Shown piece after piece: positions 3,709-41,265 of a DNA stretch of 64,000 bases. The notes below the pieces were generated by a model. It worked only from the letters and a program-made list of their open reading frames with translations. It did no database searches and was not told the origin of the DNA. Position 1 is the stretch's first letter, and each line of letters begins with the position of its first letter. The position numbers and the translations under genes are program-made. Origin of the DNA: Anaerolineae bacterium (GTDB taxonomy: Bacteria; Chloroflexota; Anaerolineae; Aggregatilineales; Aggregatilineaceae); assembly GCA_034437275.1 (NCBI GenBank), contig DAOTUD010000185.1:17702-81701 (forward strand), in the 5' to 3' direction.

Positions 3709-4653
3709 TCAAGGGAGTGCATCCGACAGGCCCACCACATCCGGCGGCAGCGCAACGACCACCAGCCGGTGCGAGTTGGCGTTGTAGGGCCAGCATGTTA
3801 CGAGCGTAACACGTTCATCATCTGTCGGCAATATCCAGCGGGCATTTTCCTGGCGCACACTGACCGGCTGGTATTCCTCGGCCAGCGTCATGATCTGCGC
3901 CACGACATAGTAGTGTCTTTCCCCCTGCGCGTCCAGCGTCACGACATCGCCCGGTTCCAGGCGGATCAAATGCCGGAATACCGCGCCGTACACGTTGTGA
4001 TGCCCGTTGAGGACGATGTTCCCCGGCTGGTTGAGCGGGCTGGAGTTGTGGTGCCACCCGGCGGCGTACTCGTTGGGGACATCCCACTGGCTGTACGTCT
4101 GCCCGCCGAGCGTGATGGCGTGCTGCCCGACCAGCACCACCGGCGCATCCAACTCGATGGCGTCGATCACGATGCGCTCCGGGATCAGCGGGCGGGGGGT
4201 GGCCGTGGGGGGCGGCGTGGGGCTGGGGGCGGGGGTAGGGGTGAGGCTGGCGGTCACGGTGACAGTGATCGTGGCGGTGTGTGTCAGCGTGGGGGCAGGC
4301 GTCGCGCGGCGGGTGGGGCGCGCGGTATTGGCTGGGGGCACAGTTGCGGCGGCGAAAGACGTCGCGCTGGGGGGCGGTGTGCGTGTGGGCGTGGCCGGGA
4401 CTGGCGACTCGCGCGGGCTGACCGGCAGCATCGCGAGCTGGTCGGCCCGCAGCGCGGGCGGCGCCAGCGGCGAGCCGAGCAAACCGGGGGTGGGCGTCGC
4501 CTCGGCAGTCCCCGCTGCGCCGGGTGGCAGCAGCACCGCTTCGTCCGGCTCCAGCAGTCGCCACCCCAGCAGCGCGATCCCGCCCCCCAGGCAGCTCAAC
4601 CCCACGAGGGCGATGAGCGTGCCCATCACCAACGCCCGGCGCGGGTGGGACAT
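3709..4653 (-). CDS. Sortase-family transpeptidase with N-terminal TM anchor and long Pro/Thr/Ala-rich linker
   Basis: Start chosen at MSHPRRALVMGTLIALVGL (ATG 4653-4651), which overlaps the upstream gene's TGA as ATGA. C-terminal catalytic domain has NIVLNGHH and the TLVTCWP (TLxTC) cysteine motif. Confidence 0.8.
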   Translation of the reverse strand: MSHPRRALVMGTLIALVGLSCLGGGIALLGWRLLEPDEAVLLPPGAAGTAEATPTPGLLGSPLAPPALRADQLAMLPVSPRESPVPATPTRTPPPSATSFAAATVPPANTARPTRRATPAPTLTHTATITVTVTASLTPTPAPSPTPPPTATPRPLIPERIVIDAIELDAPVVLVGQHAITLGGQTYSQWDVPNEYAAGWHHNSSPLNQPGNIVLNGHHNVYGAVFRHLIRLEPGDVVTLDAQGERHYYVVAQIMTLAEEYQPVSVRQENARWILPTDDERVTLVTCWPYNANSHRLVVVALPPDVVGLSDALP

Positions 4654-5357
4654 CAGGGCCGGGTGCCGTTGTTGAGGATGGCGGCCAGGACCGTGTCCGG
4701 ATCGGCCAGCGAGTCGAAGACATGATCCGGGCCGTGCGCCTGCAGTTCCGCCGTGCTGTATGGCCCGGTGGCGACGGCAATCGTCCGCGCCTGCACGCTG
4801 GCGGCACACGCGATATCGCCCGGCGTATCGCCGATGATCACGATCTGGTCGGGCCGGAAGTCCGCGCCGCTCAGGTCCCGGGCGCGCTCCAGCGCCAGCG
4901 GCGGCAGCATGGAACGCTCCCAGCCTTCCGAGCCAAACGCGCCGATTTTGAAGTCCTGCGGATCGTAACCGGCGGCGTGCAGCTTGATCGGCACCAGCGT
5001 GGCCATGTTGCCAGTCACCAGACCGAGCAGCACATCCGGGTTGGCCTTGAGCCGGGCGACGAGTTCCGGCGCGCCCAGGCACGGGCGCACGGGGAAATCG
5101 CCGATGATGGCGGACAGGTGACGCGCCACCGTCTGGATGTAGGTGTCCAGCCTGGCCTGCACTTCCTCCGCCGCGATCCCCGCCGGTTCCAGCGCATCGC
5201 GCACAATACCCCAGTCCGTCATTCCGGCGAAGGTGACGCGGTCCACGTCGCCCTGGGTGCCGAAGACATCCTGCAGCGCCAGCCGGGTCGCCGCGCGCCC
5301 GCAGCCACCAGAGTGGAGCAGTGTGCCGTCGATGTCAAACAAAACCAACTGTTTCAT
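4653..5357 (-). CDS. HAD-superfamily hydrolase (phosphoglycolate phosphatase-like)
   Basis: Start at MKQLVLFDIDGTLLHSGG (DxDGT motif), with an AAGGAAAG RBS upstream. Contains LVTGN and the IIGDTPGD motif IV. Confidence 0.75.
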   Translation of the reverse strand: MKQLVLFDIDGTLLHSGGCGRAATRLALQDVFGTQGDVDRVTFAGMTDWGIVRDALEPAGIAAEEVQARLDTYIQTVARHLSAIIGDFPVRPCLGAPELVARLKANPDVLLGLVTGNMATLVPIKLHAAGYDPQDFKIGAFGSEGWERSMLPPLALERARDLSGADFRPDQIVIIGDTPGDIACAASVQARTIAVATGPYSTAELQAHGPDHVFDSLADPDTVLAAILNNGTRP

Positions 5358-9281: not shown

Positions 9282-9307
9282 ACCGGCCCCACGTCTAGAA
9301 ATATCAC

Positions 9308-9340
9308 AACGCCCCGGAGCAATCTGGGGCGTTGTTTTTA
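9308..9340. terminator. Rho-independent terminator after nifJ (possibly bidirectional)
   Basis: Hairpin aacgcccc-ggagcaatct-ggggcgtt followed by gttttta. Confidence 0.6.
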
Positions 9341-9402
9341 GTTAGGGATTATGCCAAAACGTGCTGGGTCTACATGCCAGCCTGCATAGGACCGTGGCAG
9401 CG

Positions 9403-9765
9403 TCAGGGCCGGTAGTCGTTGAGCACTTCCACCAGCTCCGGCACGCTCACCGGCTTGACCAGGTAGAGATCGCCGCCGACTTCGCGGCAGCGCGCGATAT
9501 AGTCCGGCAGATCGTAGGCAGTGATCATGATCACCGGCGCGTTCACGCCATTGCGGCGCAGAATATCGGTCATATCCAGCCCGTTCAGATCGCCGGGCAA
9601 GTGAATATCGACCAGGAACAAATCTGCATCCCAGACATATTCGCTGTCTAAGGCACTTTCGGCATCACTGAATGTCAACAGCGAATCGCCAGTCGAGTGG
9701 GTGACTCGCTCCAACAGCAGAATATTCGTCGGATCGTCCTCAATATAGATGATGTTCATTAACAC
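9403..9765 (-). CDS. Single-domain response regulator (CheY-like receiver)
   Basis: 120 aa. Has the acidic pair (YIEDDP), the phospho-acceptor context (LFLVDIHLPG), ITAY and the LVKP lysine. Confidence 0.8.
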   Translation of the reverse strand: MLMNIIYIEDDPTNILLLERVTHSTGDSLLTFSDAESALDSEYVWDADLFLVDIHLPGDLNGLDMTDILRRNGVNAPVIMITAYDLPDYIARCREVGGDLYLVKPVSVPELVEVLNDYRP

Positions 9766-9850
9766 CCTACTTCAACCGCATTATCCAGGAGATGGCATCC
9801 ATTATACGCTAAAAGTCGGCTGGTTTCCAAGATAATCGAGTTGCAGCCAG

Positions 9851-9892
9851 AAAAAAGACCTTCTGAGTGCTCGTGTCACGCTCAGAAGGTCT
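9851..9892 (-). terminator. Rho-independent terminator of the ABC operon
   Basis: On the minus strand: 12-bp stem agaccttctgag/ctcagaaggtct followed by UUUUUU, 26 nt after the permease stop. Confidence 0.75.
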
Positions 9893-9917
9893 TGCTTGGT
9901 ATTCACTACACGGTGCT

Positions 9918-11744
9918 TTAGTCGAACCGGATGCGGGGGTCGAGCCAGGTGTACATGATGTCCACCAGGATATTCCCCAGGATCAGGAAGACGGAGTAGA
10001 GCAGCGAGACCCCCATGATCATGGTGTAGTCACGGGCGGCCACACTTTCCACAAACACCTTGCCCAGCCCCGGGATGACGAAGATCAGTTCGACCACGAA
10101 CGTACCGGTCAGCACGGCGGCCAGCAACGGCCCCAGGATCGTCGTTACCGGGATCATGGCGTTCTTGAGCGCGTGGACGTAAACCACAACACGCTCGCGC
10201 AGGCCCTTCGCGCGTGCCGTGCGCACATAGTCTTCGTGCAGCACCTGGAGCAGGCTGGCGCGCGTCAGGCGGGCGATACCGGCGCTCATGCCGGTGCCCA
10301 GCGTGATGACAGGCAGCGCCATGATCTTGATGTAGTACGACGACAGTTCTGGGCCTTCACGCCAGGCATTGTCCGTCGCCGCGACCGGCACCCATCCCAG
10401 TTCCACCGCGAAAATGATGATCAGGATGGGGGCCAGTACAATCGAGGGTGTGGACTGTCCCATCACAGCGAAGAACATCGCCACATAGTCGATCGCACTG
10501 TTATGATAGACTGCTGCCAAGACGCCGAGCGGAACCCCCAACAGGAAGCCCAACGCGACCGCGAACAGGCCGACCTGCAAGGAGACGGGCAGACGTTCGG
10601 AGATTTCCTCGCTCACCTGGATGTTCCGGGTGCGGTTCGACACGTTCAGCGAAGGGCCGAAGTCCATGTGCATCGCGTCCCACATGTAGTTGAAGAACTG
10701 CGAGTCCAGCAGGTCGATGCGCGTGACCTTCACCGTGTTACGCGTGGTGGCGGTCGCATCGCCGCCGCTCTCTGTCAAGGTCTCGTACCGGGTGATCGGA
10801 AGCAGGCTCCACGACTTGGGCCTCTTGGGTTCTTCTTCGATCACAAATTCCGGCTCGGCAGGTTCTTCCGGGGCCTCAATTGCCAGGGCTTTCACCTCGG
10901 CTTTAGCCTCATTCACCCCCTCTTGGAGTTTGGGGATTCTCTCTTCCTCTTTAAAGCTGCCGCTGGTGCGTACCTGGGCCAGGGTGCTCTGCAGCTCGTT
11001 CAGGCGCTCAACAGCCGCGTCGTATTCTGCCAGGCTTTCCTCGGCTTCCACCAAATACTGCTGGTGCTCGGTGAGCTTGGTCGCGGCATAGTCCTGCATG
11101 GCATCCGCGTCGAACTGGTCCAGCGCCATACTGGCTGCGACCAGTCGCTCGCCAGCCTCATTCATCTGCGCTTCGAGCTGGTCAACCTCGGCGCCCACCC
11201 CTTGCAGGGACAGGGCGGCGTTGTACTTCTCGACGGCAGCCACATACTCGGCTTCGGCGGCTTCGTATTCGGTCAGAGCCGCCTGGTGCGCCTGATACTG
11301 CTCGTACTGCGCCTTGATGTCCTCGTATTCCTGGTAGTGGTCTACGCCGACCAGATAGGCCTGGTAGTCCGCGTGCCGTGCCAGGTCCTTGTTATATTCG
11401 TCGTAGCATCCAGCCGCTTCCATCTGATCTTCAGCTTCGGGGCATTTGCCGTCGTTCCAGGTGTTGAAGATCAGCGGCTTGTCCAGGCCAAACTGCTGCT
11501 CGAGCTGTTCCTTCACATAATCCGGCATCCGGCGCTGGCCGACCGCATTGAACGGGCCACCGGGCAGCAGATGGGACAATGTGAAGGTCACCAGCAAGAT
11601 CGCAAGCAGGACCGGGATGGCTGCCAGCAATCGCCGGATCAGGAACTTGAGCATGCTGGTGCCCCCTATGGCCCGCAGAATGCCGGTCAGGAAGTCCCAG
11701 ATGCTTTTCAGTAACCCGAAAACTATTCTTTGTACTTCTTGCAT
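9918..11744 (-). CDS. ABC transporter permease, OppB/DppB-like, with a coiled-coil insertion of about 255 aa in the first extracytoplasmic loop
   Basis: The ends match the DppB pattern: MLKFLIRRLLAAIPVLL..., FGLDKPL, then DFGPSL...ISERLPVSLQ, and a C-terminal EDYVRTARAKGL. An alternative start is the ATG at 11654. Confidence 0.8.
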   Translation of the reverse strand: MQEVQRIVFGLLKSIWDFLTGILRAIGGTSMLKFLIRRLLAAIPVLLAILLVTFTLSHLLPGGPFNAVGQRRMPDYVKEQLEQQFGLDKPLIFNTWNDGKCPEAEDQMEAAGCYDEYNKDLARHADYQAYLVGVDHYQEYEDIKAQYEQYQAHQAALTEYEAAEAEYVAAVEKYNAALSLQGVGAEVDQLEAQMNEAGERLVAASMALDQFDADAMQDYAATKLTEHQQYLVEAEESLAEYDAAVERLNELQSTLAQVRTSGSFKEEERIPKLQEGVNEAKAEVKALAIEAPEEPAEPEFVIEEEPKRPKSWSLLPITRYETLTESGGDATATTRNTVKVTRIDLLDSQFFNYMWDAMHMDFGPSLNVSNRTRNIQVSEEISERLPVSLQVGLFAVALGFLLGVPLGVLAAVYHNSAIDYVAMFFAVMGQSTPSIVLAPILIIIFAVELGWVPVAATDNAWREGPELSSYYIKIMALPVITLGTGMSAGIARLTRASLLQVLHEDYVRTARAKGLRERVVVYVHALKNAMIPVTTILGPLLAAVLTGTFVVELIFVIPGLGKVFVESVAARDYTMIMGVSLLYSVFLILGNILVDIMYTWLDPRIRFD

Positions 11745-11803
11745 ATTGTCCTCTTGTAGTCTATAACCCGGGGCAACCTCAGGTGGGCTGCCCCGGAGTG
11801 TCG

Positions 11804-14194
11804 TTACTGCCCTGCGGGTGCATCTGACTCAACGGGTTCTAGATCGCGGGGCAAGGCCAGCCCTTCGATCTTCTCAAGTTCACCTTCACGATAGAATGTC
11901 TGTGGCTCGCGGGTGCCATCGGCGTCTTCGTAGTATTCGATGTAGGCCGGTTCCCCGTTGCACGACACCTCGTAGAAGATTTCGTAGTCGGTGCTGGTTT
12001 CGGCCTGGCTCAGGCGCACCCCTTCGACCACAATCGGCTCCATAGGCAGGCAGCGCCCCGCGTACTCGCTGCGCTTGCCAAAGCCCGACGCACCTACCTC
12101 GGTCTTGGGGATACGCACATAGCGGCGGTCACCGTCATCGTCTTCGATCCAGGCGTCGCTGTCTTCGATATAGCGGGTGACATCGCCCGGCACAAAGGCC
12201 AATGGCCCCTTGAGGTTGTCCTGCATGATCCATCCCTCAAGCACCTGTTCTTCCAGGCAGATCGAGCGGACGGTGGTGGTACCGCGCAAGCCCTCGAAGG
12301 CCACCTCGACGGTCAGTTCCGCCTGATCCAGCTGGCAGCCGGTGCAGGTGATGTAGTAGTAGATCGTGTCGACCCCTTCATATTCCTGGATCGACGCGAC
12401 TGTGTCCGGCGTGCACTGTCCCAGGACGTTGGCATCGTCACCTGCGGGGATGGCCAGGGCGGGGTCAGTCGTCAGGTACAACGGCTGGGCGAAGTCGATC
12501 ACGAAACGCTTGGCATCTTCCGCGCCCCCAGCCGCCGCCACATCATCACCGGTGTCGGCTGCGACGTCGTCTGCCGCGGCATCACCGGCGTCGTCTTCAA
12601 CTTCGGTTGTGCCTTGTTCCGCCGCAGTGCGAGCCTGCTCGGCGATCTCTTCGGGCAGTTCGTCGGCAAAGAAGGGCACCGGCGAAGCCAACAGGAGCAC
12701 ATCTATCCCTGGATCGTAAAGCAGCGGACCGACGAAGTAGCGCTGGTCCAGCCAGCCTTCAGCTTCCTGCGGGGTTCCGTCGTCTCCTTCGTACATACAG
12801 GTAAATTTATAGTAAATCTCGCTGTCATCAATCAACTGGGCATCCGTCGCACGCAGCACCGCGTCCATCGGGCAGTCCACAAATTCGACGTTGGGGTCTG
12901 TCCGGGGCATTGGTTCGGTCGTGAGCTGGAAGTCCGGTCCGGCATCAGGCGGCAAGATCGGCAGCGCACGCTGCTGAACCTTGATCTCGGCGGGGCCAGC
13001 CAGGTCGTTGTTCGTGAGCCAGCCCTTCTGATAGCCGGCGAAGTTGCCCATTGTGTCGTACAGGGGACATTCGGCCCGGTAGTAGATTTCCCGGATGCCG
13101 TCGCCGTCTTTGTCAAACGCATGGATGCGCAAAATCGGCACAATGGTGCCGGGGGCGCACTGCGGGCCAAACGCGACGGCGGGCTGCGGCTCGAACTGGT
13201 CATCCAGCAGCGTCACGACATCGCTGTCGTCCTGGGTCAGGGTCAGGGCCAACTGGCCGCGCGGGAAGTCCAACGGCCCGGCCAAACGCTCTTCGACTAC
13301 CCAGCCGACCGATCCGACGCAGTCCGCCAGATAGTAAATATTGGCGACGGCGATGGTGACCTTGGTGCCGTGCAGCGTGCTCACCGTCTCCATCTGAGCC
13401 AGGTCTTCCTGGAGCAACTGCCCCTCAGCGACATGGTACAGCAGGATCTCCGCCAAGGCATCGGGGTCGCTGGCCAGAAATTCATCGACCGTCAGACCTT
13501 GCAGGCTCAACATATTCTCGAAGGCTTCGTCGGGCGGGGCAAAGAGCGTGAAGGGGCCATCGCCCTGCAGCGTAGCGGCCAGCCCGGCTTTCTCGAGGGC
13601 CGCCGTCAAGATCGCAAAGTCGAAGCGATCGTCTTGCTGGAGCAGGCTGAGCATGTCCTGTCCATCGCCCGCCCCAGCGGCAGCATCCACCGCCGCGCCG
13701 TCCGCAGCGGGGGTGCCGCGGGGCAGTTGGTCCACGCCTTCCGGCAGCAGTACGCCGTTGAGCACATGAATGACCCCGTTATCCGCCTCGATATCAGGGA
13801 TCATCACCCGGCCTTCGTATTCGCCCTCGTTCAGGTACAGGTCGCCGCCTTCTTCATAGATGCGGCCTGCGTACAAGATGTCTGCCGCCGAGTTACCCTC
13901 GCACAAGGCTTTGGTGTTGGTTTTGTTGTCCAGCAAGGGTTCTGGCTTCAGCGTCATGTAGAAGAACGCTTCGCCCTCCTCGTTGGGAGCCAGCACAGTC
14001 TCCAAAACGTCAAACTGTGCGTTTTCATCGACGGGAAGGGGCGTTGGTGTATAGAACGGGGTCAGTTCGAACAACCCCAAATCGCCCGAATAACAGGCCA
14101 GGCTGGCCAGCATCAACATCATGATGACCAGCATCAATGCGCCTGAAAGTCCTAAAGTTTTTTTGTTCACGTTCACGTTTCTCCTCTTCTTCAT
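11804..14194 (-). CDS. Secreted or membrane-anchored 796-aa protein: fasciclin (FAS1) motifs plus five Cys-bracketed SH3b-like repeats and an acidic linker
   Basis: N-terminal hydrophobic anchor (LMLVIMMLMLASLAC). FAS1 signatures NGVIHVLNGVLLP and GPFTLFAPPDEAF...LLYHV. Recurring module C..(I/L)YY...C...GW...L.GP. Confidence 0.7.
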   Translation of the reverse strand: MKKRRNVNVNKKTLGLSGALMLVIMMLMLASLACYSGDLGLFELTPFYTPTPLPVDENAQFDVLETVLAPNEEGEAFFYMTLKPEPLLDNKTNTKALCEGNSAADILYAGRIYEEGGDLYLNEGEYEGRVMIPDIEADNGVIHVLNGVLLPEGVDQLPRGTPAADGAAVDAAAGAGDGQDMLSLLQQDDRFDFAILTAALEKAGLAATLQGDGPFTLFAPPDEAFENMLSLQGLTVDEFLASDPDALAEILLYHVAEGQLLQEDLAQMETVSTLHGTKVTIAVANIYYLADCVGSVGWVVEERLAGPLDFPRGQLALTLTQDDSDVVTLLDDQFEPQPAVAFGPQCAPGTIVPILRIHAFDKDGDGIREIYYRAECPLYDTMGNFAGYQKGWLTNNDLAGPAEIKVQQRALPILPPDAGPDFQLTTEPMPRTDPNVEFVDCPMDAVLRATDAQLIDDSEIYYKFTCMYEGDDGTPQEAEGWLDQRYFVGPLLYDPGIDVLLLASPVPFFADELPEEIAEQARTAAEQGTTEVEDDAGDAAADDVAADTGDDVAAAGGAEDAKRFVIDFAQPLYLTTDPALAIPAGDDANVLGQCTPDTVASIQEYEGVDTIYYYITCTGCQLDQAELTVEVAFEGLRGTTTVRSICLEEQVLEGWIMQDNLKGPLAFVPGDVTRYIEDSDAWIEDDDGDRRYVRIPKTEVGASGFGKRSEYAGRCLPMEPIVVEGVRLSQAETSTDYEIFYEVSCNGEPAYIEYYEDADGTREPQTFYREGELEKIEGLALPRDLEPVESDAPAGQ

Positions 14195-14203
14195 GGTATC
14201 CGG

Positions 14204-15349
14204 TTATGTCCCGCGCATACGTGGGTCGAGCGCGTCACGTAGACCGTCACCCAAGAAGTTAAAGGACAAGGTGGTAATTACCAGCGCCACACTTGGTACT
14301 AGCAGAATATGACGATTGGAAAGGAAACCGCCCCGTTCGCGGACGGTGCTGATCATCGCGCCCCACGAGGGCGTGCCGGGCTGGATGCCCAGGCCAATGA
14401 AACTCAGGAAGGCCTCGGTGAAGATGTATCCGGGGATAGCCAGCGTTTCGGCGACGATCAACGGGCCGATCACGTTCGGCAGCAAGTGCACGAAGATGAT
14501 GCGGCGGTTGCTGGCGCCGACGGCACGGGCTGCTTCGACAAATTCCTTCTCGCGGTAGGACAAGACCTGCCCGCGTGCCAGACGTGCCATGCCGATCCAG
14601 CTCAGCGCACCCAGCGCAATGAACAGGAACAGCAGCCCACCCATGTCCTGGTTCAGGTCCAGGATGAAGCCGACAAACCCACCGCGTGCTTCGTCCTGGT
14701 ACTCGTGGGCGATCTCGGTGAAGAACACCTGTAGCAAGATCACCAGCACCAGGTAGGGGATACCGTACAGGAAGTCGATGACGCGCATCATCACATTGTC
14801 GATGCGGCCCCCGTAAAATCCCGAAATCACGCCGTAGATCAGGCCGACGATCAGACTCATCGTCGCACCCAACACGCCAACGGACAGTGATACCTGAGCC
14901 CCGTAGACTGTCTGCGACAGCCAGTCCTTACCACTGCTGTCCGCCCCCAGCAAGTAGCACCACTGCTCCTGAGAATAGTCTGGAGTATCACGGAAGCAGT
15001 GTTGGGTTTGGACTTCGACCAGGGCTTGCTGGCTCAGCCAGCCGCACCAATACGGGTTACTGTTGAGGTTGTCGCGTGCACACAAGCCGGGGTCTGGATA
15101 GGAGTCTTGCCTTTCCAGATTGACCGGGTTGATCGTGTGCATCGACTTGGCCCCCGTCCGGTTATCGAGCAGCCCGACGCGGGTCCAGAGTTGGGCTGTG
15201 ATGGCGATGAAAAACAAGATGCTAAGCACCACCAGGGCGACGACTGCCGCTCGATTCCGCCTGAACAAGTGCCAGGCGTCGACCCAGGGGTTCGCTACTC
15301 GTTCTTCTTCCTCCAAAGAGATTGGCTCTGCGCCTTCCGCAACGGCCAT
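14204..15349 (-). CDS. ABC transporter permease, OppC/DppC-like, with a Cys-rich N-terminal loop insertion
   Basis: 381 aa. LLGADSSGKDWLSQTVYGAQVSL matches the OppC N-domain pattern, and EFVEAARAVGASNRRIIFVHLLPN matches the EAA loop. Confidence 0.8.
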   Translation of the reverse strand: MAVAEGAEPISLEEEERVANPWVDAWHLFRRNRAAVVALVVLSILFFIAITAQLWTRVGLLDNRTGAKSMHTINPVNLERQDSYPDPGLCARDNLNSNPYWCGWLSQQALVEVQTQHCFRDTPDYSQEQWCYLLGADSSGKDWLSQTVYGAQVSLSVGVLGATMSLIVGLIYGVISGFYGGRIDNVMMRVIDFLYGIPYLVLVILLQVFFTEIAHEYQDEARGGFVGFILDLNQDMGGLLFLFIALGALSWIGMARLARGQVLSYREKEFVEAARAVGASNRRIIFVHLLPNVIGPLIVAETLAIPGYIFTEAFLSFIGLGIQPGTPSWGAMISTVRERGGFLSNRHILLVPSVALVITTLSFNFLGDGLRDALDPRMRGT

Positions 15350-15417
15350 ATCTTTATTTCTCCTTCATTGTCATAACCGCCCCCGATCAAAGTCGAACAG
15401 GGGAGGCCGGTCTTCAA

Positions 15418-16452
15418 TCAGATCACGCGATGACAGGCGACCCAATGTTCGGGCAGGACCTCGACCAATTCGGGGTCTTCGTCATAGCAAACATCAACCG
15501 ATACCGGGCACCGCGTGTTAAAGTTGCACCCGGTCGGCGGGTTGATTGGGCTGGGCACATCACCTTTGAGGATGATCCGCTGGCGTTTTTCTTCCACCGC
15601 CGGATCGGGCACCGGCACCGCCGACAGCAGCGCCTGGGTGTAGGGATGCAGCGGGTTGGTGTACAGTTCTTCGCTCTCGGCGATCTCGACGATCTTGCCC
15701 AGATACATCACCGCTACCCGGTTGCACAGGTGCCGCACCATGCTCAGGTCGTGCGCAATGAACAGGTACGTCAGGCCGAGTTCGTCCTGGAGTTTCTCCA
15801 GCAGGTTGACCACCTGGGCCTGGATCGACACATCCAGGGCCGAGATCGGCTCGTCGGCCACGATGAACGACGGGTTGAGGGCCAACGCACGGGCCAACCC
15901 GATACGCTGGCGCTGGCCGCCGGAAAACTCGTGCGGGTAACGCCGCACAAAGTACGGGTTCAGCCCCACCAGGTCCAGCAGGTCGGCTACGCGCTCGCGG
16001 CGTTCCCGTTTGGTGCCAATGTTGTGGACCACCAACGGCTCGGCCACGATGCGGCCTACCGACATACGCGGGTTGAGCGATGCGTAGGGGTCCTGGAAGA
16101 TCATCTGCATTTTGCGCCGCATGCGACGCATCTTCGAACCCGAAAGTTCGGTGATCTCCTGCCCGTCGAACTGTACGCTGCCTGCGGTCGCTTCGTAGAG
16201 CTGCAGGATTGTGCGTCCTGACGTGGACTTGCCGCAGCCGCTTTCACCGACCAGACCCAGCGTTTCGCCTTCGTAGATGTCAAAGCTGATCCCATCAACC
16301 GCTTTTACGGCGGCGACTTCGCGCTGGAACAAAATGCCAGAGTGGATCGGAAAATGCTTCTTCAGGTTCTTGACCCGCACCAACACTTTTTTGCCGTCCC
16401 GCGAGGTGGGCGTAGTCGTGGCGGTTTGCGTATCAGGCTTGGCTTGGTTCAT
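15418..16452 (-). CDS. ABC transporter ATP-binding protein, OppF/DppF-like
   Basis: Start at MNQAKPD (ATG 16452). Walker [10 protein letters not shown], signature FSGGQRQR, Walker B FIVADEP. The C-terminal oligopeptide-type extension has Cys residues. Confidence 0.85.
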
Positions 16453-17443
16453 GTTCTTGTTCCTTCTTACGAATGTCCACCCAACAAGCTGTGGTATGCC
16501 CTTCGATCGAGTTGGCGACCGGGGCCAGCGGGGGATTCGTGGTTGTGCATTTGTCAATGCTGTAGACACAACGTGATGCGAATGGGCAGCCCTTCGGCAG
16601 ATAGCGCATGTCCGGCGGGGCCCCTTCGATGGAAAACAGTTCCTCGTTTTTCTGGTCCAGGCGGGGCAGCGACCCCAGCAGGCCCAGGGTGTAAGGATGG
16701 CGTGGATCACCATAGACCGCTTTGGCCGGGCCACGCTCGATAATATAGCCGGCGTACATCACGTTGACGGTGTCGGCCAGCCCGGCGACCACGCCGAGAT
16801 CGTGCGAAATCCAGATCATCGCCATGCCGATTTTGTCGCGCAGACGGCGCACCAGGTCCAGAATCTGAGCCTGGATGGTCACATCCAGCGCGGTGGTCGG
16901 CTCGTCGGCGATCAACAGCTGCGGATTGCACGACAGTGCCATCGCGATCATGGCGCGCTGGCGCATCCCACCGGAAAACTGGTGTGGATAATCATCCAGT
17001 CGATCGGCTGCCGATGAAATGCCGACCATCGAGAGCAGTTCTGCCGCACGTGCGCGGGCCTGTTCGTTATCCATGCCCAGGTGCAGCTTCAACGCTTCGG
17101 TGATCTGCCGCCCAACCGTCAGCACGGGGTTGAGCGAGGTCATCGGGTCCTGGAAGACCATCGCGATCTCGGCCCCACGCACCAGGCGCTGCTTATTCTT
17201 GGATAACTTCAGGAGGTCCCGCCCGCGAAAATGGACTTCGCCAGCGGTGATCTCGCCAGGCGGCTTGGGGATCAGGCCCATGATCGAAAGGGCATGCACA
17301 CTCTTTCCGCAGCCACTTTCGCCCACTACCCCCAGCGTTTCCCCCTCTTCGAGGATGTAGGAAACGCCGTTGACAGCGTAGACCGTCCCTTCTTCGGTAT
17401 GAAATTTTGTTGTGAGGTCCTTGACCTCCATTAAGACTGTCAA
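16433..17443 (-). CDS. ABC transporter ATP-binding protein, OppD/DppD-like
   Basis: Walker [10 protein letters not shown], signature FSGGMRQR, Walker [15 protein letters not shown] start sits 6-7 nt after an AAGGAGAGG RBS. Confidence 0.85.
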
Positions 17444-17460
17444 AAGCCTACCTCTCCTTT

Positions 17461-17489
17461 GTCACTTTTCTTAGACGCACAAAAGTGAC
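17461..17489. repeat. Perfect 9-bp inverted repeat in the 5' UTR of the ABC operon
   Basis: gtcactttt-N11-aaaagtgac, between the predicted promoter (17524-17552) and the RBS. Confidence 0.6.
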
Positions 17490-17523
17490 AGAACAAACGC
17501 ACTGCCTAGAAAAGTTTTGCGGA

Positions 17524-17552
17524 ATTGTATTTTAGTTTCGGGTGCTTGACAA
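17524..17552 (-). promoter_or_regulatory. Sigma-70-like promoter of the ABC operon
   Basis: Minus strand reads TTGTCA-17 nt-TACAAT (plus-strand tgacaa 17547-17552, attgta 17524-17529). Confidence 0.55.
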
Positions 17553-17717
17553 ATTTTTTGTAAAAAATGACAAGAAGCCGACTACCGCGTTTAGCTTATC
17601 GATTGCCCCCCCTCGTGCAAAGTGACGTCTGGCCTTTATTCGGCATGATCTGAGATACTTTCCGTTAATGGTACAACTGGGCACCCTGTTTGGTTCAAAA
17701 TTCGTGCCAGCCCGTGC

Positions 17718-17746
17718 TTGACAGCCCCCGCCCGGTTTGCTACACT
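17718..17746 (+). promoter_or_regulatory. Sigma-70-like promoter of the serS leader
   Basis: TTGACA (17718-17723), 17-nt spacer, TACACT (17741-17746). Confidence 0.65.
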
Positions 17747-17752
17747 GCTGCC

Positions 17753-17999
17753 AATGACTTTGAGGGAGCCAAGTAAGGGGCCGCGTGTTCCCAGCGAGCT
17801 GCCGGTTGGTGCAAGGCAGCAGCACCGCCCCCTGAAATCCACTCCTGAGTACGTCGCCGCCGACACAAGGCAGGCCGGGTACGCCCGTTAGCGCGTGCGA
17901 GTCGCTGACTCGCTGAGGTCCCTGCCGCGAGGTAGGGATAAAATCCAGGTGGCACCACGAGCCGCTCGTCCTGGTTGATCCGGATGAGGGGCTTTTTTT
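17753..17999 (+). promoter_or_regulatory. T-box riboswitch leader (Ser specifier UCC) with intrinsic terminator
   Basis: Stem I base GGGAG (17765-17769) pairs with CUCCU (17842-17846). The specifier loop has AAGUAA on the 5' side and CUGAAAUCCA on the 3' side, i.e. UCC at 17838-17840 followed by a purine. T-box sequence AAAUCCAGGUGGCACCACG at 17941-17959. Terminator stem 17961-17971/17982-17992 followed by U7. Confidence 0.8.
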
Positions 18000-18020
18000 G
18001 TTTGTCAGGAGCACAGACCT

Positions 18021-18185
18021 ATGACGTTTGATTTCATGAAACCGGATATCTGGGATGGCCTGGTGATCGGGGTCATCCTGATCGGGCTGGCGTTGGCTGC
18101 GCTGCAAATTTACAGCGACTACACGGCCTATCAACGCCGCCAGGCCAAAGCCCAGCGACGCCACAAGCAGCCAAAGGAGGAATAA
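18021..18185 (+). CDS. Small (54 aa) single-TM protein between the T-box terminator and serS
   Basis: The ATG is preceded by AGGAG. Sequence MTFDFMKPDIWDGLVIGVILIGLALAALQIY... with a basic tail. Its last codons contain the AAGGAGG RBS of serS. It is below the ORF-track length cut-off. Confidence 0.4.
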   Translation: MTFDFMKPDIWDGLVIGVILIGLALAALQIYSDYTAYQRRQAKAQRRHKQPKEE

Positions 18186-18189
18186 GGCA

Positions 18190-19635
18190 ATGCTCGATAT
18201 TGCAACTATTCGTGAAAACCCCGACGAGGTAAAACGCCAGCTTCGCAACCTGAACGACGAAGAGGCCATTCCCCGCATCGATTCGATTCTGGCGTTAGAC
18301 CAGCGGCGTCGTGAGTTGATCACGACGGTCGAGCAGATCAAGGCCAACCGCAACAAGCTCAACAAGCAGATGGGACGCTTCCGGGGCAACAAGTCGCTGT
18401 CGCCCGCGCAGACCATCGGCGGGGCCAGGCGCGCGGCCCAGGCGCTCGATGCCGGGGATATCGACGGCTTCCTGGCGGCGCTGGCCGATCCGCAGCCGCT
18501 GCCCGGCGAAAGCGATGAGTCGGAGGAGGCGGTCAAGGTCGCGCTGGACACGCTGACCGACAGCATGAAGAACCTCGGCCAGCGCGTCAACGAGCTTGAC
18601 GAGGAGATTCGCGAGGTTGAGGCGCAGCTTGAGGAGCATATGCTGTGGATTCCTAACATGCCACACGAGAGCGTGCCGGTCGGCCTCAGCGAAGAGGACA
18701 ACGTGATCCACGACGCGGAGGGCGAACCGCGCTCCTTCGACTTCCAGCCGCAGCCCCATTGGGATCTCGGGCCGGCGCTGGACATCATCGACTTCGAGCG
18801 CGGGGTGAAGCTCTCCGGCACGCGCTTCTACGTCCTCAAGCGCATGGGCGCACGCCTGTACCGGGCGATGATCGCCTGGCTGATGGATGTGCACACCACG
18901 CAGCACGGCTACACCGAGGTGTACCCGCCGTTTATGGTGCGCGAGGAGGCGATGTTCGGCTCGGCGCAGTTCCCCAAGTTCCGGGACGTGGTATATTTCG
19001 ACGATGAGTCGCAGCTTTATATGCTGCCGACGGCGGAGGTCGCGCTGACGAACATGCACGCCGACGAGATCTTCGACGAGGCCGCGCTGCCGGTGAACTA
19101 CGTCGCGCATACGCCGTGCTTCCGCCGCGAGAAATTCAGTGCCGGGCGCGACACGCGCGGGATCAAGCGGGTGCACCAGTTCGAGAAGGTTGAACTGTAC
19201 AAGTTCACCACGCCGGAGACCAGCTACGACGCGCTCGAAGAACTGGTCCAGCACGCGGAGAACGTGTGCCGCCTGTTGGACATTCCCTTCCGGCGCAACG
19301 AAATGGTGACCGGTGATCTGGGCTTTTCCGCCGCCAAGAAGTTCGACCTGGAAATGTGGGCCCCCGGCAGCGGGGAATGGCTGGAGGTCAGCTCGTGCAG
19401 CAACACCGAAGCCTTCCAGGCGCGCCGCGCCAACATCCGCTACCGGCCCGACGGCGGCGGCAAGCCCCGCTATGTGCACACCCTCAACGGGTCGGGCCTG
19501 GGCATGGTGCGCGCGCTGATCGCCGTGCTGGAGAACTACCAGCAGCGCGATGGCAGCGTGGTGGTGCCGGCTGTGCTGCGCCCGTACATGGGCGGGCTGG
19601 AAGTGATCGCGCCGCAGGGCCAGGTTCAAACGTAA
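18190..19635 (+). CDS. serS: Seryl-tRNA synthetase
   Basis: 481 aa. N-terminal coiled-coil arm and class II core (FRRE, GSGLGMVRALIAVLENYQ). Confidence 0.9.
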   Translation: MLDIATIRENPDEVKRQLRNLNDEEAIPRIDSILALDQRRRELITTVEQIKANRNKLNKQMGRFRGNKSLSPAQTIGGARRAAQALDAGDIDGFLAALADPQPLPGESDESEEAVKVALDTLTDSMKNLGQRVNELDEEIREVEAQLEEHMLWIPNMPHESVPVGLSEEDNVIHDAEGEPRSFDFQPQPHWDLGPALDIIDFERGVKLSGTRFYVLKRMGARLYRAMIAWLMDVHTTQHGYTEVYPPFMVREEAMFGSAQFPKFRDVVYFDDESQLYMLPTAEVALTNMHADEIFDEAALPVNYVAHTPCFRREKFSAGRDTRGIKRVHQFEKVELYKFTTPETSYDALEELVQHAENVCRLLDIPFRRNEMVTGDLGFSAAKKFDLEMWAPGSGEWLEVSSCSNTEAFQARRANIRYRPDGGGKPRYVHTLNGSGLGMVRALIAVLENYQQRDGSVVVPAVLRPYMGGLEVIAPQGQVQT

Positions 19636-19661: not shown

Positions 19662-20043
19662 GGCAGGCTCAAGTCGACCGGGTGATCGCGCCCTGCCACG
19701 CGGCAGGGTGAGGAAAGTCCGCGCTCCACAGGGCACGGTGCTGGCTAACGGCCAGGCGGGGTAACCCGACGGCATAGTGCAACAGAGAGGTGTATTGCCT
19801 CCGCCCATTGGGCGCGAGGTGAGGGTGAAACGGTGCGGTAAGCGCGCACCGGCGCCGGTGGTGACATCGGCGGCCAGGCAAACCCCACCGGGAGCAATAC
19901 CAAGCAGGAACCAGGGGCGGCCCGTCCCGTTATGAGTTCCGGGTCGGTTGCTAGAGATGGCGGGTAACCGTCATCCTAGATAGATGATCACCACCTGCCA
20001 CCGCAGGTACAGAACGCGGCTTACAGGCTGGCTTGAGTCTGCG
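19662..20043 (+). ncRNA. rnpB: RNase P RNA, bacterial type A
   Basis: Universal GAGGAAAGUCCG (about 19712), and the 3' conserved ACAGAACGCGGCUUACAG. P1 pairing of GCAGGCUCAAGUC with GGCUUGAGUCUGC. A TATAAT box at 19653-19658 lies just upstream. Confidence 0.9.
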
Positions 20044-24346: not shown

Positions 24347-24422
24347 TGGTGGACCTGAAGGGGCTCGAACCCTTGGCCTCCACAATGCCATTGTGGCGCT
24401 CTCCCAGCTGAGCTACAGGCCC
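24347..24422 (-). tRNA. tRNA-Ala (anticodon GGC)
   Basis: The reverse complement GGGCCUGUAGCUCAGCUGGGAGAGCGCCACAAUGGCAUUGUGGAGGCCAAGGGUUCGAGCCCCUUCAGGUCCACCA folds as a cloverleaf. It has the G3:U70 Ala identity pair, anticodon loop AUGGCAU and an encoded CCA. Confidence 0.95.
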
Positions 24423-33646: not shown

Positions 33647-34288
33647 CTAAATAGTGATGTCCGAGGGCGTGGCAGAAGGCGTGAGTGTCGGTGTCGGTCC
33701 TGCCGGGGGATTGTTGTCACCGTCTGGGGGCGGCGTTCCCGGCGTGGACGATGCTGGTCCAGGTGGCCCCGGTGTGTACGATGGCGTTGGGCTGATGGTG
33801 GGCAGCGGTGTCATGGTCTGGCTCGGGGTTGGTGTAGGGTTGGCGGCCTCGACGACGCTTTCGTGCACGAAGACGATATCACGAAATGCGCCATCCGGGT
33901 TCAGATCGACCACGTACCATTCCATATTCTCCCGCGCCTGCGTGTATACACATAGTTCGGTCCCATACTCAACGATCTCGCGAAAAGGGCACTGATTGTC
34001 GTCCATGCTGGGGCACTCGCGCAGCTTGGCGCGTTCCACACTGATGGCGAATAGCTGGCAGGGCGGCAGCGGTGTATACGTGGGGGGCCGGGTGGGGATG
34101 CCGGAGGTTGGCGCGGGCGTGGTGGCCAGGGCCGCATCGCGCGCATCTGCGGTGGCACCCGCTGTGATGTCGCCGCCGCTCTCTAGAAAGTTCAGCATCC
34201 CGGTCCAGATCAAATAGCCTCCAAACACCAGCAGTGCGCCGATGGTGACGACCAGCATGGGCGATGGCCCGGTTGTATTGCGAGACAT
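33647..34288 (-). CDS. Membrane-anchored protein with a Cys-containing SH3b-like domain flanked by Pro/Thr-rich linkers
   Basis: TM segment MLVVTIGALLVFGGYLIW. Core CQLFAISVERAKLRECPS...MEWYVVDL...VFVHESVV resembles bacterial SH3. Confidence 0.5.
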   Translation of the reverse strand: MSRNTTGPSPMLVVTIGALLVFGGYLIWTGMLNFLESGGDITAGATADARDAALATTPAPTSGIPTRPPTYTPLPPCQLFAISVERAKLRECPSMDDNQCPFREIVEYGTELCVYTQARENMEWYVVDLNPDGAFRDIVFVHESVVEAANPTPTPSQTMTPLPTISPTPSYTPGPPGPASSTPGTPPPDGDNNPPAGPTPTLTPSATPSDITI

Positions 34289-34325
34289 ACCTCTACCCTA
34301 TGATGACTGTGTTGGCGTATTCCCC

Positions 34326-35390
34326 CTATTCCCGCAGCGCGTGCAGTTCGTATACGGTGATCGGCTCACGCTTGCCGGGCAGCCGCCGCGCGTCGAGGCG
34401 ACTGGCCTCGATGTGGCCCTGGGCCTGGCGGAACGTGTCTTTGCTGATCAAAATCTGGTCCGGTGCGGCAGTTTGCTGCAACCGGCGCGCAATGTTGACC
34501 GTATCGCCGATCACAGTGTAACTCATGACCCGTTCCGATCCCACATTTCCGACCGCGGCTTCCCCGGTGTGCAGCCCCATCCCCAACGCCAGTTGGCTCA
34601 GGTCGATCTGCTGGCTGGAGGACTTCAACTGCTGGAACAGGGCGCGCATGTCCAGCGCCATCCGCAGCGCGTTGAGTGTGTCGTCGTTGGTCGCGACCGG
34701 CGCACCGAAAAACGCCATGATCTCGTCGCCGATGTATTTGTCGAACGTTCCCTGGTATTCGAACACGACTTCCGTCAGCGCGGAGAAGATGCGGTTCAAG
34801 ACGGTGATCACGGCTCCGGCGCTGTATTGTTCGGCGAAGGCGGAAAACCCCCGGATATCGCTGAAGAACACCGTTACGCAGCGCGTTTCGCCGCCCAACT
34901 GCAAGTATTTTTCCGGGTCAGACAGGATCACTTTGGTCACGTCCTCGTCGACATAGCGCATCAACACCTGCCGCAGCAGCCGGTTACGAGCTTCGACCTC
35001 ATCGTGAAGCTGCTTGATGCGCAGCAGCGACTTGACGCGCGTCAGCATCAGCAGCGAGTTAAACGGCTTGGTCACAAAATCGTCGGCCCCGGCCTCGATG
35101 GCTTTGAGCTTGTCCTCGTCGGATTCCAGCGCGGTGACCATCACGACCGGCGTGAAGCGGGTGCGCGGGTCCTGCTTGAGCTGGCGGCAGACTTCGTAGC
35201 CGTCCATGCCGGTCATGCGCACGTCGAGCATCACCAGATCGGGCGGATCGTCGAACGCCAGTTCCAGCGCTTTTTCGCCACTGTGCGCGGTGCCGACCCG
35301 GTAACCGCTCGTCTTGAGATACGTCTCCAGCACTTCGCGGTTCATCCAGTCATCGTCCACGACCAGCACGTAGGGGGCTTCCTGGCTCAT
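34326..35390 (-). CDS. Response regulator receiver fused to class III adenylate/guanylate cyclase
   Basis: Start at MSQEAPYVLVVDDD, overlapping the upstream gene's stop as ATGA. Receiver motifs DVRMTGMDG and KP. Cyclase domain VTVFFSDIRGFSAF...GDEIMAFFGAP...GLHTGEAAVGNVG. Confidence 0.85.
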   Translation of the reverse strand: MSQEAPYVLVVDDDWMNREVLETYLKTSGYRVGTAHSGEKALELAFDDPPDLVMLDVRMTGMDGYEVCRQLKQDPRTRFTPVVMVTALESDEDKLKAIEAGADDFVTKPFNSLLMLTRVKSLLRIKQLHDEVEARNRLLRQVLMRYVDEDVTKVILSDPEKYLQLGGETRCVTVFFSDIRGFSAFAEQYSAGAVITVLNRIFSALTEVVFEYQGTFDKYIGDEIMAFFGAPVATNDDTLNALRMALDMRALFQQLKSSSQQIDLSQLALGMGLHTGEAAVGNVGSERVMSYTVIGDTVNIARRLQQTAAPDQILISKDTFRQAQGHIEASRLDARRLPGKREPITVYELHALRE

Positions 35391-36010
35391 GCGTTGGACT
35401 TTTCTCGCATCACCGCCGCCAGCCGGCGCTGCACCTCGTCGACGGCCCACTGCTGCGTGCCGTCCAGCACCACGACCGGCGCTTCGGCGCGATCAGCATT
35501 CAGCAGCCACTCGTCGTGATGGTCCTCAAGCTGCTGGAGATATGCCCGCGCGATGGACTTTTCCTCCGCGCGCCCGCGCATTTGCAGCCGTCGGAAGCAT
35601 TCCTCGGCGGGGGTGCGCAGGTAGAGAATCGCATCCGGGATGGGCACCGTCGGCGCGAAGTGCTCCCAAAAGTGGCGATACACCGCCCATTCGGTGTCGT
35701 CCATCACCCCTTGCGCGTGCAGGTTTTTGGCGAATACATGCCGGTCACAGTAGATCGAGCGCTCGTAGACGACCGGCTGCTCGCCGGTCACGTCCAGCAG
35801 GGCCTGCGCCCGGGTCACAAACGCGCCAATCTGCAGCGTAAAGGCCCAGCGCGGCGTATCGGCGTAGAAGCGTTCGAGCAGGTTGGTGTCGAAGCCGGTC
35901 TGCCAGCGCCCGACCGGCTCGGGGATAAACGTAAAGCGGTCGCTGGCCTCGAGCATGGTCCCCAGGGTTGTTTTTCCGGCGGCGATGTTGCCTTCAATGA
36001 GAACAAGCAT
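35387..36010 (-). CDS. Deoxynucleoside kinase
   Basis: P-loop MLVLIEGNIAAGKTT, ERSIYCDRHVFA (ERS motif), lid RGRAEE. AAGGAAG RBS before the ATG at 36010. Confidence 0.8.
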   Translation of the reverse strand: MLVLIEGNIAAGKTTLGTMLEASDRFTFIPEPVGRWQTGFDTNLLERFYADTPRWAFTLQIGAFVTRAQALLDVTGEQPVVYERSIYCDRHVFAKNLHAQGVMDDTEWAVYRHFWEHFAPTVPIPDAILYLRTPAEECFRRLQMRGRAEEKSIARAYLQQLEDHHDEWLLNADRAEAPVVVLDGTQQWAVDEVQRRLAAVMREKSNA

Positions 36011-41163: not shown

Positions 41164-41190
41164 CCCCCCCACCGAAAACACGAACCTGGA

Positions 41191-41221
41191 AGCCAGGTCG
41201 CGGCTGTGATCTGGCTTTTTT
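41191..41221 (+). terminator. Rho-independent terminator after citrate synthase
   Basis: agccag-N14-ctggct followed by ttttt. Confidence 0.55.
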
Positions 41222-41265
41222 AGTACCACTTGTGGTAAGTTTGGCATGTTGTTAAGGATCAACAC

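Follow-up and report, generated by a model that had tools for sequence, protein, structure and literature searches.

The 64-kb window considered here, i.e., 64,000 nucleotides (nt) of contig DAOTUD010000185.1 from an Anaerolineae bacterium, to which all coordinates refer, carries an operon for an Opp-type ATP-binding cassette (ABC) transporter with an undescribed, conserved extracytoplasmic partner that is not a solute-binding protein (SBP). Five co-directional genes on the minus strand follow the order OppD–OppF–OppC–X–OppB, and the open reading frame (ORF) listing contains all five at the positions given in the initial annotation. They encode an OppD-like ATPase of 336 amino acids (aa) with a TTG start (16433..17443), an OppF-like ATPase of 344 aa counted from the ATG at 16452 (15418..16452), an OppC-like permease of 381 aa (14204..15349), a 796-aa product herein named protein X (11804..14194), predicted to be a lipoprotein that combines five SH3b-like repeats with a FAS1 insert, and an OppB-like permease with an ORF of 608 aa (9918..11744); the four transporter assignments are based on ORFs and Pfam. 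The tight packing described initially, with OppD and OppF overlapping by 20 nt and X starting 9 nt past the OppC stop, is borne out by the listing, and OppB starts 59 nt past the X stop.

Both ATPases comprise the ABC_tran and oligo_HPY domains of Pfam; OppC matches OppC_N and BPD_transp_1, and OppB matches BPD_transp_1_N and BPD_transp_1, with all permease scores above the cut-offs (BPD_transp_1, E 6.8e-40 and 1.3e-36; BPD_transp_1_N, 34.5 bits; OppC_N, 36.3 bits). The Walker A, signature, and Walker B motifs, which in OppD read GESGCGKS, FSGGM, and LLIADE, are intact in OppD and OppF alike. Four C-terminal cysteines in each ATPase (286, 292, 299, and 320 in OppD; 309, 315, 322, and 340 in OppF) share the spacing of the [4Fe-4S] ligands carried by E. 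coli DppD and DppF (PMC12136057). The permeases possess EAA coupling motifs and align over their full length with E. coli OppB/OppC and DppB/DppC, and they are BPD_transp_1 proteins rather than FtsX/MacB-type permeases with four transmembrane (TM) helices and an extracytoplasmic domain. The nearest NCBIfam models for the four transporter proteins belong to the Opp/Dpp family; however, among the named Opp, Dpp, Nik, Gsi, and Sap subunits of that database, none of the four reaches the equivalog cut-off of its own family, OppB scoring 264.9 bits versus an Opp3B cut-off of 480 and OppF scoring 437.6 versus an OppF cut-off of 540. The only NCBIfam cut-off that OppF passes is that of a dipeptide ATPase subfamily model (416.8 versus 408 bits). 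Judged by these domains and motifs, the operon specifies a type I ABC transporter of the Opp/Dpp type (PepT family) whose engine is intact.

Dependence on a Venus-flytrap binding protein is the defining trait of type I ABC importers. The initial annotation reported no family-5 binding protein in the operon or elsewhere in the window, and both Pfam and tblastn agree for everything scanned, the serS and pyruvate:ferredoxin oxidoreductase (PFOR) genes, named from their translations and synteny, having been left out of the Pfam scan. X has no SBP_bac_5 match at E ≤ 1, nor has any of the 67 X-family members, and the family was not found in the other large window ORFs scanned, which include those for the sortase, leuS, sdhA-like, S41 peptidase, histidine kinase, transketolase, PPC/SH3_3, M32 carboxypeptidase, major facilitator superfamily, amidohydrolase, citrate synthase, and M20 peptidase proteins, among others. 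With E. coli DppA and OppA as queries, tblastn against the window and the related loci retrieved by that point returned matches at E of at least 0.45 only, and six related loci annotated with Pfam show no SBP_bac_5 gene within their flanks (up to 8–10 kb per side, less at contig ends).

OppB contains an equivalent of the scoop motif (aa 62–91, GGPFNAVGQRRMPDYVKEQLEQQFGLDKPL; 11472..11561, minus strand), which aligns with residues 32–62 of E. coli DppB with single-residue gaps only, these lying on either side of the loop, and places G-Q-R-R-M-P-D over G-E41-R42-G-I-S-P-E; read by eye, the scoop loop is dibasic in all 26 loci inspected. In E. coli, the DppB scoop motif, located between TM1 and helix α3, inserts into the DppA cleft, where it touches the residues holding the peptide termini, and DppBCDF has no activity unless DppA is present (PMC12136057). 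Since the scoop motif is kept in OppB, the canonical docking geometry appears to be preserved, which keeps a binding protein encoded elsewhere in play; an SBP_bac_5 protein from another part of the genome may serve the transporter.

X was initially taken for a freely secreted protein, whereas its N-terminus predicts a membrane-anchored lipoprotein. Conserved alignment columns delineate a signal peptide and a lipobox-like LASLAC with Cys34 (14093..14194, minus strand), directly followed by the conserved tether CYSGQxxGxFELTPxYTxTP. Cys34 is invariant in the 14-sequence alignment A1 and nearly invariant (≥90%) in alignment A3, and a lipobox pattern (PROSITE PS51257-like) is present in 57 of the 67 X-family members; of the ten that fail it, eight were listed, six being N-terminally truncated or extended and two failing otherwise. 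The repeats, all given on the minus strand, begin with repeat 1, which is split into an N-terminal part (aa 52–113; 13856..14041) and a C-terminal part (aa 284–312, IYYLADCVGSVGW...LAGP; 13259..13345), and continue with repeat 2 (aa 313–403; 12986..13258; predicted local distance difference test (pLDDT) score >90) and repeat 3 (aa 404–497; 12704..12985). An acidic, low-confidence linker (aa 498–563; 12506..12703) separates repeats 1–3 from repeat 4, which has two Cys pairs (aa 564–668; 12191..12505), and repeat 5, a larger, more divergent β domain (aa 669–790; 11825..12190; pLDDT ~90). Repeats 1–4 are homologous to one another, with hhalign probabilities of 96–98.5% and E down to 2e-15 (96.6% for repeats 1 and 2; 98.5%, E 2e-15, for repeats 3 and 4), and repeat 5 compares with them at a probability of 5–55%. 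Each repeat ends in YYxxxC…GW…LxGP with a conserved Cys upstream, giving one conserved Cys pair per repeat, and exactly 12 Cys follow the lipobox Cys in 61 of 62 X-family members. BLASTP self-comparison of X and of its relative P0003 revealed no internal repeats, which emerged only by profile–profile comparison.

SH3b domains are wall-binding modules that bind peptidoglycan peptides, and the assignment of the X repeats to this fold comes from modeling rather than from Pfam. In the window protein, Pfam detects Fasciclin only (E 2.9e-25, in two stretches), SH3_3 and GW give no match even at E ≤ 1, and NCBIfam has no match. Among the 67 relatives, SH3_3 is weakly detected in 16 (best E 0.0027) and GW in seven; the highest scores are borderline (SH3_3 25.4 bits, cut-off 27, and GW 21.8 bits, cut-off 21, in the L034 homolog X′; GW 22.0 bits in P0131). 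An AlphaFold2 model built from a 67-sequence alignment reached a mean pLDDT of 78.9 and a predicted template modeling score of 0.73, with the repeats above 90, and is all-β apart from the FAS1 insert and the linker, which are helical or low-scoring. The top Foldseek match in the PDB is 9a7d_A, the B. subtilis amidase YrvJ with several SH3b domains (E 1.6e-5, probability 1.0), followed by 3m1u_B, an SH3b-containing γ-D-Glu-L-diamino-acid endopeptidase (E 0.01). This run superseded an earlier one with 14 sequences (pLDDT 52, marginal fold matches), whose best Foldseek match was 4epc, S. epidermidis AtlE. A search of the family profile and the pooled-repeat profile against PDB sequences gave nothing significant, the sole repeat-profile match again being AtlE 4epc (E 0.8), and a Foldseek search against viral structures was uninformative. 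In the predicted structure, X is an SH3b-like repeat lipoprotein of tandem SH3-like β-barrels, without formal membership in Pfam SH3_3 or GW. The initial label of a FAS1/SH3b-repeat protein therefore stands as regards the Fasciclin match, the modeled fold, and the weak matches in relatives, and fails as regards SH3_3, which is undetectable in the window protein itself. The idea that X is a divergent SBP_bac_5 or Venus-flytrap protein was ruled out, with no match in sequence, an all-β fold, and no SBP among the 50 Foldseek matches listed; an SBP_bac_5 domain hidden inside X had been looked for as the finding that would overturn the initial interpretation, and neither Pfam nor the fold contains one.

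The FAS1 domain lies within the β-hairpin of repeat 1 (aa 114–283; 13346..13855, minus strand) and scores 89.3 bits against a cut-off of 22 for PF02469. Its order is unusual, as the C-terminal strands (…ADNGVIHVLNGVLLP) come upstream, at aa ~114–155, followed by an Ala/Gly/Asp-rich linker and the N-terminal part, so that profile positions 2–92 are matched at aa 192–285. In BLAST comparisons with multi-FAS1 surface proteins, to whose FAS1 domains it is 35–45% identical, the insert matches, collinearly, the place in P0054 and P0079 where one of two tandem FAS1 domains passes into the next; being one domain in length but out of register, it is a circular permutant. The FAS1 content claimed initially is consequently confirmed and also qualified, since X holds one domain, circularly permuted, inside repeat 1. 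Relatives of ~545–580 aa from Anaerolineae metagenome-assembled genomes (MAGs) cover ~63% of X without any Pfam domain and correspond to X minus aa ~114–283; altogether, the insert is missing from ~65 X relatives and is shared by L024 and L027. The same hairpin site elsewhere accommodates Mann_GBD_bact, a galactose-binding-like domain (E 1e-9), in L033, L034, P0132, P0134, P0135, and P0140, and a PsbP-like segment in P0131, a protein far richer in repeats, with approximately nine or more GW motifs read by eye; the X protein P0127 bears a C-terminal CARDB domain. On the evidence of these alignments, the hairpin of repeat 1 is a hotspot at which binding modules are inserted, and a hairpin that hosts three unrelated domains, one of them a permuted FAS1, provides a clean natural case of domain insertion and permutation.

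The large extracytoplasmic insertions initially described in both permeases were upheld by the alignments, and in related loci permease-loop insertions do occur together with insertions in X. In OppC, the extracytoplasmic loop between TM1 and TM2 (aa ~56–128; 14966..15184, minus strand; from alignments) is ~55 aa longer than in E. coli OppC/DppC and contains four conserved Cys, a family-wide feature, and ~25 additional residues lie between TM3 and TM4 relative to E. coli. OppB has an N-terminal extension ahead of MLKFLIRR that is kept in relatives, and compared with E. coli OppB/DppB, the whole OppB family carries ~45 extra aa right after the scoop motif and before helix α3. The window OppB adds to these a lineage-specific insertion of ~205 aa in the TM1–TM2 loop (aa ~107–311; 10812..11426, minus strand), which is missing from 402-aa orthologues, is acidic and rich in A, E, Q, and Y, and has a Cys-x12-Cys base. 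The expansion goes further in L026 (~250 aa) and L024 (~500 aa), and in L033 and L034, an unrelated segment at the same position extends ~110 aa beyond the core (~150 aa beyond E. coli). Weak matches to coiled-coil families suggest that the ~205-aa insertion is probably helical or coiled-coil-like; because a crude Fourier test gave no clear 3.5-residue (heptad) signal, a coiled coil is not claimed as demonstrated.

In the 21 core loci where the two genes are complete and could be measured, X has 554–611 aa and OppB 372–374 aa from the MxKF start. The corresponding lengths of X and of the OppB ORF are 796 and 608 aa in the window, 735 and 906 aa in L024, 725 and 511 aa in L033, and 690 and 505 aa in L034. 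Two independent lineages thus combine insertions in X with an enlarged OppB loop. Assembly artefacts as the source of the FAS1 and OppB insertions were ruled out, since an identical X was recovered from four independent assemblies and homologous insertions are found in L024, L026, and L027. As a separate observation, the OppB of L028 (432-aa ORF) has just the short Cys-containing base (…DGDCPES…) of the window-type insertion, and the accompanying X is without FAS1; this OppB may represent an intermediate stage of loop expansion.

The operon is conserved in the 36 retrieved Chloroflexota loci, which sample only two clades. A one-genome-per-species scan yielded 28 loci, all from Chloroflexota, with record titles naming Anaerolineae, Aggregatilineaceae, 'Thermoflexus', Ardenticatenia, or Chloroflexia. 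By tblastn, the order OppD–OppF–OppC–X–OppB was found in 31 of 32 Anaerolineae loci (28 from the one-genome-per-species records), i.e., in every locus complete enough to show it, and intergenic gaps around X estimated from ORFs are mostly <90 nt. The same order recurs in the second clade (Phototrophicales, Anaerolineales, and a 3.7-Mb MAG), where OppC identity is 60–66% and the X-like proteins have 503–725 aa. Upstream of the operon, leuS and a divergently transcribed serS are present in most loci. Identities to the window proteins in the related loci reach 80–89% for OppD, 83–88% for OppF, 74–81% for OppC, and 76–83% for the membrane core of OppB, compared with 61–79% for SerS and 61–81% for LeuS; the transporter proteins are at least as conserved as the neighboring LeuS and SerS, and conservation at the level of tRNA synthetases across two clades suggests a housekeeping role. 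X is less conserved, with 33–40% identity in the repeats and 42–58% in the first ~120 aa. A family hidden Markov model retrieved 61 representatives among 1.84 billion proteins, including WP_119072414.1 of the cultured Aggregatilinea lenta, and the family is without a Pfam or NCBIfam model. A canonical binding-protein gene conserved beside orthologous operons in which X is sporadic would have contradicted the initial interpretation; instead, X is strictly conserved and the six annotated loci have no SBP gene nearby. That X is a sporadic hitch-hiker gene was ruled out by this synteny. The literature searched contains no description of this operon type.

The transporter shares with the Opp/Dpp importers (TC 3.A.1.5; E. 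coli OppABCDF and DppABCDF, M. tuberculosis OppABCD) the two BPD_transp_1 permeases with OppB- and OppC-type N-termini, the two ABC_tran + oligo_HPY ATPases with intact motifs and DppD/DppF-spaced cysteines, and the OppB scoop motif. It departs from them in the lack of an SBP_bac_5 gene inside or near the operon, in the gene for an SH3b-like lipoprotein between the permease genes, in the gene order D-F-C-X-B, and in the four-Cys OppC loop and the OppB insertion immediately behind the scoop motif. Murein tripeptide is taken up by OppBCDF in E. coli (PMC10622912, PMC3173086), and the gene for MppA lies outside the OppBCDF operon, this protein being an unlinked receptor that serves the Opp permeases (PMC3173086). 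An Opp-type engine with its receptor gene outside the permease operon could likewise apply here, where a role in wall-peptide recycling is our suggestion; however, MppA is a conventional cluster-C binding protein, and the extracytoplasmic protein linked to the window operon has an SH3b-like fold.

With the tandem SH3b and GW modules of YrvJ, the AtlE R repeats, and NlpC/P60 enzymes, X has in common small β-barrels in tandem and a Y-Y ... G-W ... L signature. Unlike these proteins, it has no hydrolase domain and combines a lipobox anchor, an invariant Cys pair per repeat, and a location in an ABC operon. Among NlpC/P60 enzymes, those with SH3b domains use free murein peptides as substrates (PMC4600125). 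The FAS1 domain of X differs from that of usual FAS1 proteins in being single, permuted, inserted in the hairpin of another domain, and confined to a small subclade. An ABC transporter coupled to an extracytoplasmic SH3b-like module is also seen in the wall teichoic acid exporter TagGH of B. subtilis, in which an extracellular SH3b-like domain belongs to the ATPase subunit (TagG in the naming of PMC11466899). In TagGH, that module is wall-binding and fused to the ATPase of a type V exporter, whereas the window operon combines a type I importer fold with a separate five-repeat lipoprotein.

We tentatively propose, at slightly less than an even chance, that X is an envelope-anchored subunit dedicated to this transporter, with a capture or docking role in the import of peptides that stem from the wall. 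X would co-evolve with the transporter as a dedicated subunit, its tether and repeat 1 being placed beside the enlarged extracytoplasmic loops of OppB and OppC, while its faster-evolving outer repeats and the hairpin module (here the permuted FAS1) would bind an envelope polymer, either peptidoglycan or a secondary wall glycan. In this way X would tether the importer to the wall and would trap or enrich peptide ligands derived from it, which would then be taken up, i.e., recycled; the final hand-over to the permeases would probably follow the canonical docking geometry, and an SBP_bac_5 protein whose gene lies elsewhere might carry it out. Four elements of this model are inferred: the physical contact of X with OppB and OppC, the nature of the wall ligand, import as the direction of transport, and the identity of the substrate. 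X is regarded as a dedicated partner rather than a passenger because of its fixed slot between the permease genes in two clades, its conserved membrane-proximal part next to variable outer repeats, its display site for adhesion or glycan modules, its co-variation with the OppB loop, and the family-specific additions to the permeases. A capture or docking function is favored because SH3b domains are wall-binding, SH3b-containing NlpC/P60 enzymes act on murein peptides, and E. coli Opp imports murein peptides. The initial suggestion of a noncanonical capture or docking component, or of something other than a simple importer, accordingly survives in part: X is not an SBP, it is strictly conserved, and the insertions co-occur, but the ATPase and permease motifs and the scoop are all kept.

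Several observations weigh against this proposal. The inserted FAS1, galactose-binding-like, and CARDB domains point to glycan or surface binding and away from peptides, and the ligand could be other than peptidoglycan. No more than two or three independent events underlie the co-occurrence of insertions, and the retained scoop motif would fit a canonical SBP that does all the delivery, with X peripheral. The SH3_3 and GW matches lie below or barely at the Pfam thresholds, and whole-chain structural similarity (TM-score) to the Foldseek matches is low because the domain arrangement differs. Lastly, no murein-peptide-processing enzyme was seen in the operon.

It is unlikely, in our estimate, that X goes further and acts as the sole receptor, in which case it would have replaced the Venus-flytrap protein by non-orthologous displacement, would dock on the OppB and OppC loops, deliver the substrate, and trigger ATP hydrolysis. 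X does occupy an operon slot of a type in which SBP genes occur and is a lipoprotein of SBP-like size (~540 aa when mature in most members) with two domain blocks, repeats 1–3 and 4–5, joined by a flexible linker; it also evolves faster than the permeases, as receptors usually do. The extra family-specific extracytoplasmic elements on both permeases would suit such a receptor, as would the lack of an SBP_bac_5 gene both in the 64-kb window and within 8–10 kb (less at contig ends) in the six annotated loci. Nonetheless, to our knowledge no type I ABC importer has a receptor other than a Venus-flytrap protein, and large adhesion or glycan-binding insertions would be odd for a receptor of small peptides. 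The scoop, which in DppB contacts the cleft of the DppA that DppBCDF cannot work without, is moreover kept here almost gap-free (PMC12136057). The retained scoop would suit another case, in which X is unrelated to transport and is a wall-associated lipoprotein with a structural or adhesive function; it would have no more than a transcript in common with a conventional peptide importer whose binding proteins are encoded elsewhere. Opp/Dpp permeases with unlinked binding proteins are well known, MppA–OppBCDF being an example (PMC3173086), and the domains and inserted modules of X are typical of surface and wall proteins. We nevertheless consider this case improbable, given that the persistence of X between the permease genes in two clades would be surprising for a gene without a shared role, that the insertions in X co-occur with those in the OppB loop, and that the best-conserved part of X is the membrane-proximal tether with repeat 1.

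A complex that is not an importer at all, in which ATP hydrolysis would drive export or FtsEX-like mechanical work on the envelope through X and the OppB loop, seems very unlikely. The Opp-family system SapBCDF is reportedly an exporter of putrescine, and NCBIfam names SapB, SapC, SapD, and SapF, the closest Opp-family relatives of that kind, putrescine exporters. Transporter conservation like that of aminoacyl-tRNA synthetases, which suggests a housekeeping envelope role, the long and probably helical OppB-loop insertions, an FHA-domain membrane protein downstream in most relatives, and a class A penicillin-binding protein (PBP) ~2.5 kb downstream in one locus would all agree with such a function. 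The permeases, however, have BPD_transp_1 type I importer folds with EAA and scoop motifs and not the type VII fold of FtsX/MacB, their best NCBIfam matches are importer permeases (Opp3B and Opp4C) and not Sap, and no hydrolase partner was seen in the operon.

The envelope biology of the monoderm, filamentous Chloroflexota is poorly known, and this transporter may have a so far undescribed form of coupling to the cell envelope. Should X be a subunit, it would represent a previously undescribed coupling of an importer to the wall, with a possible role in the recycling of peptidoglycan peptides in these bacteria. Should X instead be the receptor itself, the system would be the first type I ABC importer with a receptor of non-SBP fold, and the binding-protein paradigm would need revising; the hairpin modules (FAS1, galactose-binding-like, and PsbP-like) would then tune capture from the envelope. 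As the X family includes the cultured A. lenta, these proposals are directly testable.

The operon is bracketed by control elements that the initial annotation had named and that are both seen in the sequence. A putative sigma-70-type promoter, TTGTCA-17-TACAAT (17524..17552, minus strand), diverges from the T-box/serS promoter; with 10 of 12 matches, it is joint top among seven promoter-like sites in a 9-kb scan of 9300–18300, in which 3.4 would be expected by chance. In the 5′ untranslated region, a hairpin of 9 base pairs (bp), GTCACTTTT / AAAAGTGAC, with an 11-nt loop (17461..17489, minus strand) was read directly upstream of the ribosome-binding site AAAGGAGAGG and could be a translational or regulatory element. 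At the other end, an intrinsic terminator consists of a 12-bp stem (AGACCTTCTGAG/CTCAGAAGGTCT), a 13-nt loop, and T6 (9850..9892, minus strand); it was read by eye, as the automatic scan accepts loops of ≤8 nt and did not report one of 13 nt.

Downstream of OppB, six relatives (L001, L002, L004, L024, L034, and L036) encode a membrane protein of 650–715 aa with FHA and Yop-YscD_cpl domains, the L024 copy having a C-terminal SH3-like motif. In L001, L002, and L004, a protein of ~830 aa and an ABC-2-type ATPase come after the FHA protein, and a permease gene is annotated only in L002. In L033, the 3.7-Mb MAG, a class A PBP (Transgly + Transpeptidase; 15580–17164) lies ~2.5 kb downstream of OppB, past three unannotated ORFs, which hints at a cell-wall context. 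The window lacks the FHA block; its opp terminator is followed instead by a response regulator and the PFOR gene. This stand-alone response-regulator receiver gene (9403–9765, minus strand) directly follows the terminator, with a promoter-like TTGGAA-18-TATAAT at 9801–9830 (minus strand), and a strong 13-bp hairpin terminator (9306–9335, plus strand) comes after the convergent PFOR gene.

On the other side of the operon, a T-box leader (17751–17976, plus strand; 93.1 bits versus a gathering score of 93) precedes a 54-aa ORF, for which a single TM helix is predicted (18021–18185, plus strand), and serS (18190–19635, plus strand). Small ORFs in the same serS-leader position are present in L001 (5665–5865) and L002 (1738–1929), and the 54-aa ORF may be a conserved micro-protein of the leader region. 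Just downstream of serS lies a class A RNase P RNA (275 bits; 19670–20039, plus strand), and a tRNA gene is located at 24350–24422 (minus strand). Two further ORFs have no Pfam match, namely one of 425 aa (34242–35519, plus strand) and one of 641 aa (40042–41967, minus strand), which is antisense to citrate synthase and is probably a shadow ORF in G+C-rich sequence. The window also encodes a 457-aa sortase-domain protein (3709–5082, minus strand) and a 619-aa protein containing PPC domains and, at its C-terminus, an SH3_3 domain (53054–54913, plus strand), both consistent with a monoderm envelope that bears wall-attached proteins.

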